From a phage, in the sequence record PZ445524.1: a stretch of DNA of 64,000 nucleotides; one strand, 5' to 3'. This document shows, in pieces, positions 46,646 through 47,101 of this stretch. Below the pieces are notes generated by a model. The model was given only the letters and a program-made list of their open reading frames with translations, was not told the origin of the DNA and ran no database searches. A program made the translations under genes and the position numbers. How positions within the stretch are numbered: position 1 is the first letter of the stretch; the number at the start of each line of letters is the position of its first letter.

Positions 46646-47101
46646 TTATTTTAAATCGTCTGCCCAATCGAGTTTAAGAGGCTCTTTGTATTCACGGTCA
46701 AGTACAACCGGAATTTGTACATCACCGCTAAATGATAAGGGCCCAACATTATAAGACAATGTTATATGCGGTGTGTAATCATCAAAATCATGTGTAGCAC
46801 CTAGTGCCCGCGCATACATGTGTCGACAGCGCAGATATTCAGAATCTAGCACAAGTACAAGAGTCGATCCATCTTGTGTTTTCCATACTTCTAAATGTCC
46901 AGAAGAAGCTACTTCAAAACTTCCACTCGATGGAACATATGGAACATTTACTCTTGAATAACATATAGTCGAATGAATTTTTTCTCTAGGAACTGGATTA
47001 GGAACACGTAAAGAGCGCTGGAGTTCTTCCAGCGCATCAAGTGTTAATTCTGAAAACTTAGCTGCTACATAAAGACCCGTTGAAAAGTCTTTAAATTCCA
47101 T
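46646..47101 (-). CDS. 57B: 2H-phosphoesterase-family protein in the gene 57B position (Acb1-like)
   Basis: 151 aa with two H-x-T/S motifs (HSTICY and HITLSY); lies immediately downstream of 57A. Confidence 0.7.

Follow-up and report, generated by a model that had tools for sequence, protein, structure and literature searches.

Phage T4 encodes both of the anti-CBASS proteins Acb1 and Acb2, and two layers of anti-CBASS protection have been described for it in the literature (PMC10312549). Acb1 activity was discovered in the T4 57B protein (Hobbs 2022, PMC9117128), which was isolated by activity-guided fractionation as a cGAMP-degrading enzyme. Cleavage of cyclic nucleotides was also compared between lysates of wild-type T4 and of a T4 phage constructed to lack acb1 (PMC9117128). 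Hobbs et al. described a 2H fold with an HxT/HxT tetrad (H44, T46, H113, T115) and a metal-independent reaction that proceeds in two steps via a cyclic phosphate; the H44A/H113A mutant of T4 Acb1 is catalytically dead (PMC9117128).

The second protein, Acb2, has been studied in T4 and in phage PaMx33, the T4-type and PaMx33 proteins sharing about 24% identity (PMC10312549). T4 Vs.4 and PaMx33 Acb2 both form a hexamer that binds three cyclic dinucleotides (PMC10312549), and in PaMx33 Acb2 mutation has shown Y11 and K26 to be required for this binding. For 3'3'-cGAMP, the KD of T4 Acb2 is about 84 nM; the protein does not bind cA3 or cAAG, and its D61R mutant still fails to bind cA3 (PMC10312549). 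In T4, the Y8A mutation abolishes dinucleotide binding, and both Y8A and F82C abolish function (PMC12657218). According to Cao et al., the dinucleotides cUU, cUG, and 3'2'-cGAMP lie outside the spectrum of Acb1 (PMC10312549). Single and double acb1/acb2 deletion mutants of T4 have been made. Nucleotide binding by Acb2 has a known cost, since it triggers Panoptes (PMC12657218). Phage T2 is not restricted by Panoptes, and the Panoptes paper describes a T2 mutation that is likely to damage selectively the site where Acb2 binds dinucleotides.

The DNA analysed here (the window) is a stretch of 64,000 nucleotides from a phage, sequence record PZ445524.1. The surroundings of both loci match hundreds of Tequatrovirus genomes at 95-99% identity, and identities of 97-99% to T2, T4, RB32, and vB_EcoM_112-type phages indicate a T4-like phage, Tequatrovirus. 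The 57B region is nearest to phage T2 (98.7% over 2.2 kb) and the vs region to vB_EcoM_112-type phages (98.5%), while T4, compared with window bases 30000-54000 (24 kb), is 97.1% identical over 92% of the length. On the minus strand, the gene order is 2 - 3 - 1 - 57A - 57B - internal-protein genes - trna.4 at the first locus and vs.6 - vs.5 - vs.4 - vs.3 - regB at the second, in each case as in T4 and T2. The two anti-CBASS genes of T4, encoding the Acb1 nuclease and the Acb2 sponge, are almost certainly present in this phage as well (Table 1). What the sequences establish for the pair is (near-)identity, membership of the two families, conserved position, and catalytic and binding residues that are intact. 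Both genes are a textbook case of the published system and nothing here is new. The two protective layers proposed in the preliminary description are borne out, in that both genes are identified by sequence and the pair matches what has been published for T4.

Table 1. Position of acb1, acb2, their functional sites, and neighbouring genes in the window.
Feature	Position	Strand	Evidence or remark
acb1 (gene 57B), 151-aa 2H-phosphoesterase	46646-47101	-	complete ORF; identity to T4/T2 57B, PF23474, PDB 7T26
First catalytic motif H43-S44-T45 (T4 H44/T46)	46967-46975	-	codons CAT TCG ACT
Second catalytic motif H112-I113-T114 (T4 H113/T115)	46760-46768	-	codons CAT ATA ACA
57A	47101-47343		immediately upstream of 57B
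Gene 1, dNMP kinase	47343-48107		upstream of 57A
ip5-like gene	46316-46573	-	
ip7-like gene	45935-46243	-	
Third small internal head protein gene	45633-45869	-	
acb2 (gene vs.4), 88-aa cyclic-dinucleotide sponge	35663-35929	-	T4 Vs.4 83/88, PDB 7UQ2, PF24729
GAGGA ribosome-binding site	35938-35942	-	8 nt upstream of acb2 ATG 35929; same in T4, T2
Gly7-Tyr8 codons of Acb2 (GGT TAT)	35906-35911	-	T2 2-bp deletion site, intact here; DNA alignment window/T4/T2
vs.5, 73 aa	35922-36143	-	matches phrog_1986 end to end

The first gene had been assigned to the 57B position, and its product to the Acb1 family, from its place and from two H-x-T/S motifs. Indeed, it lies downstream of 57A and gene 1 in the order seen in T4 and T2, and all 151 residues of its product are shared with residues 2-152 of T4 Acb1 (NP_049750.1) and likewise with T2 57B. 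Because of this 100% identity, chance is excluded as an explanation. The T4 annotation starts one Met codon earlier (MMEF...), whereas in the window, as in T2, a single 57B ATG overlaps the TAA stop of 57A (TAATG). In a regular-expression scan, the pattern H-x-[TS] occurs exactly twice in the protein, as H43-S-T45 and H112-I-T114, which make up the catalytic tetrad published for T4, H44/T46/H113/T115. The Pfam family PF23474, "Anti-CBASS protein Acb1," is matched with 202.7 bits (cut-off 27, E=2.6e-60), residues 8-149 covering the entire profile (positions 1-144 of 144). Acb1 of Erwinia phage FBB1 (7T26/7T27), which serves as template for the 2H fold and the C-terminal lid, is a divergent orthologue from a phage of another host genus and differs by a one-residue insertion. 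The 57B product aligns with its solved structure 7T26 over the full length (E=4.1e-62), both HxT motifs included, and this end-to-end alignment predicts a 2H phosphoesterase fold. Acb1 proteins at least 99% identical are encoded in 499 phage records.

The 2H phosphoesterase fold is common to LigT-type enzymes, and the 57B product shares it. RefSeq still labels 57B/Acb1 "RNA ligase" in T4 (NC_000866) and T2 (NC_054931), and PHROG 755 does likewise. On these grounds the gene could be read as encoding a LigT-like RNA ligase or an RNA-repair 2H enzyme, not primarily an anti-CBASS nuclease. However, the label rests on fold-level homology and on no assay, while the identical T4 protein was found by its cGAMP-degrading activity, with the deletion lysate for comparison, and Pfam now has a dedicated Acb1 family that the protein matches over its full length. 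A ligase or repair enzyme is thus extremely unlikely, and the identification as Acb1 is retained. Since the sequence is the same as that of T4 Acb1, the published mechanism should transfer to the window protein by identity, a step that is very safe. The 57B product would then act as Acb1, a metal-independent 2H phosphoesterase, and, as in T4, would destroy adenosine-containing cyclic di- and trinucleotides.

The stretch downstream of acb1 differs from that of T4. In the window, 45633-46573 (minus strand) contains three genes for small internal head proteins, whereas T4 has ipI as its sole internal-protein gene at that site; T4 ipI has no match in the window. The ip5/ip7 cassette is of the T2/RB32 type. 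A promoter-like site, TTTACA-17-TACTAT, is found at 46632 and again at 46302, ahead of two of the internal head protein genes. Further along, eight tRNA genes lie at 43237-44587 (minus strand), for Arg, Met-CAT, Thr, Ser, Pro, Gly, Leu, and Gln; the one with the CAT anticodon corresponds to a tRNA annotated as tRNA-Ile in T4. The homing endonuclease gene segB (43317-43982, 97% identical to T4) sits between tRNA-Arg and the other tRNAs, as in T4. The region upstream of the tRNA genes differs between the window and T4 and contains a 187-aa ORF (42255-42818, minus strand; phrog_2280, function not assigned). The window yields no match to T4 e.7.

The second locus had been called from position, as an ORF of about 98 aa (35663-35959) lying where T4 has vs.4, a gene named there as Acb2. 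This agrees with the published gene equivalence "acb2/vs.4," and both the place of the ORF and its identity as Acb2 stand; its start is most likely the ATG at 35929, 30 nt from the one first proposed, which gives 88 aa. The reading frame, which ends at 35663, extends uninterrupted back to ATG 35959 and TTG 35965, so a product of 98-100 aa can be drawn, and its additional N-terminal residues could affect the N-terminal dinucleotide pocket. Neither upstream start is preceded by a Shine-Dalgarno-like sequence, whereas GAGGA stands 8 nt before ATG 35929. In addition, if translation began at 35959, the gene would run 38 nt into the upstream vs.5, a full-length family member. The equivalent of ATG 35929 is both the annotated T4 start and the first residue of the crystallised T4 protein. 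Because of the missing Shine-Dalgarno sequence, the vs.5 overlap, and the GAGGA and T4 homology at 35929, the start at 35959 is probably wrong and the longer protein very unlikely.

With the start at 35929, vs.5, acb2, and vs.3 are closely packed, the stop of vs.5 overlapping the acb2 ATG (ATGA) and the stop of acb2 overlapping the vs.3 ATG (TAATG). The T4 reference differs here, its vs.5 ending 36 nt upstream of acb2. That reference vs.5 (58 aa, L001 5382-5558) is short of one C ("gcgagtggtt" vs. "gccgagtggtt" in the window) and, past residue 17, continues in another frame; what is annotated there is probably a frame-shifted form of the gene. Elsewhere in the vs region, vs.8 (36839-37490, minus strand) aligns to T4 vs.8 in two frames (37490-37395 and 37426-36842), and its longest ORF has 195 aa, vs. 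219 aa in T4; the sequences place a frameshift near the vs.8 N-terminus in either the window or T4. At 37426-38557 the order is vs.8, ipIII (37556-38134), a 105-aa ORF (38151-38468; phrog_3966, function not assigned), and the lysozyme gene e. Neither T4 denV (pyrimidine-dimer glycosylase) nor T4 ipII gives a tblastn match in any part of the window; denV is also absent at that locus in the T2 stretch examined.

Alignment to Acb2, proposed beforehand as the step that could refute the second assignment, is positive. The product has 83 of 88 residues (94%) in common with T4 Vs.4 (NP_049728.1) and matches the T4 structure PDB 7UQ2 ("Vs.4") with E=3.6e-53; its match to 8H2J, a structure of PaMx33 Acb2, is weaker (E=0.04, phmmer). 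The product also scores 71 bits against Pfam PF24729, Acb2_Tad1_hairpin (cut-off 27), with residues 7-83 on profile positions 1-58 of 58. By these alignments the protein is identified as a true orthologue of Acb2, beyond mere position. Length (88 aa), start, ribosome-binding site, and the flanking vs.5 and vs.3 are those of T4 Vs.4. The dinucleotide-binding residues Y8, K23, and F82 are all present, as are those given by Cao et al. as closing the T4 trinucleotide pocket (Y37, A57, L60, D61, T64), and T68 as well.

PaMx33 Acb2 (8H2J/8H2X) has the same Pfam domain, and its Y11 and K26 are equivalent, by residue mapping from the HMMER alignment, to Y8 and K23 of the window protein. Unlike T4-type Acb2, which has Asp61 at the R67 position, it accommodates cyclic trinucleotides in a second pocket (R67/T74). 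A dual-pocket subtype like that of PaMx33 was considered for the window protein and rejected, the residues found being Asp61 and Thr68 as in T4. Since T4 Acb2 has these same residues and does not bind cA3, the window Acb2 is filed as T4-type.

Five substitutions separate the window protein from crystallised T4 Vs.4: E13D, L44F, N46S, C50D, and F52L. The differences cluster at residues 44-52 with loss of Cys50, and inactivation of acb2 does occur in nature, as T2 demonstrates; hence the allele might be impaired or re-tuned, leaving the phage effectively on Acb1 alone, like T2. Yet the ORF is intact with Y8, K23, and F82 conserved, and the substitutions miss every residue reported to contact the ligand as well as those closing the trinucleotide pocket. 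They are either conservative or fall in a segment across a gap of the PaMx33 alignment, taken as a putative inter-helix loop. In addition, alleles at least 99% identical occur in 60 phage records (100% identical in two among the matches listed), which argues for a maintained, functional variant. An impaired allele is therefore distinctly unlikely. With the dinucleotide-binding residues present and the substitutions away from them, T4-type behaviour is predicted.

The T2 gene illustrates what a lesion looks like at this locus. T2 Acb2 (YP_010073770.1) is encoded at the same place and is identical to T4 from residue 9 onward, but a 2-bp deletion in the Gly7-Tyr8 codons (GGTTAT -> GGAT; L002 4840-4851) removes Tyr8, the window and T4 being intact there. 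In T2 the native frame ends after seven codons; RefSeq recovers a CDS by starting it at a TTG (MKILRD...). Judged from the DNA, this deletion is what underlies the "T2 mutation" of the Panoptes paper. A T2-type lesion, considered for the window in view of its T2-like 57B region, was ruled out by DNA alignment. The gene is predicted to be kept in working form despite this T2-like 57B neighbourhood.

Around acb1 and acb2, scans for consensus promoters gave sites no more numerous than in shuffled sequence, and terminator scans around both genes did no better than shuffled controls. T4 transcriptomes place acb1 and acb2 mostly in the middle and late periods. Because the promoter scans were no better than shuffled sequence, we infer the timing of expression in this phage from the T4 transcriptomes only.

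For both proteins, biochemical activities, oligomeric state, and effect on CBASS are expected to follow published T4 work. Acb2 would be a small helical protein assembling into a hexamer, as suggested by the 94% identity. Cyclic dinucleotides would be held between pairs of N-terminal domains, stacked on Tyr8/Phe82 and salt-bridged to Lys23. A T4-type Acb2 should sequester a wide variety of cyclic dinucleotides, with cUU, cUG, and 3'2'-cGAMP among them; cyclic trinucleotides, which it would not bind, would be covered by Acb1. The two proteins would thus be complementary, Acb2 taking dinucleotides that Acb1 misses and Acb1 taking trinucleotides.

Panoptes is set off when Acb2 binds nucleotides. 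With its intact acb2, the phage should therefore be detectable by Panoptes (OptSE), as T4 is and unlike T2. There is a very small probability that the five substitutions, among them the loss of the second Cys in C47-E-D-C50 of T4, shift ligand affinity or spectrum. If they did, for example through weaker binding of 2',3'-c-di-AMP (the Panoptes decoy) with CBASS signals still bound, this would be a third way out of the Acb2/Panoptes dilemma, besides loss of acb2 as in T2.

Finally, the public labels of 57B and vs.4 are out of date, Vs.4/Acb2 being called "conserved hypothetical protein" or "hypothetical protein" in the phage records listed. The value of the finding lies mainly in correct annotation, the two genes to be renamed acb1 and acb2; by analogy with T4, the phage that carries them is predicted to evade most CBASS types.
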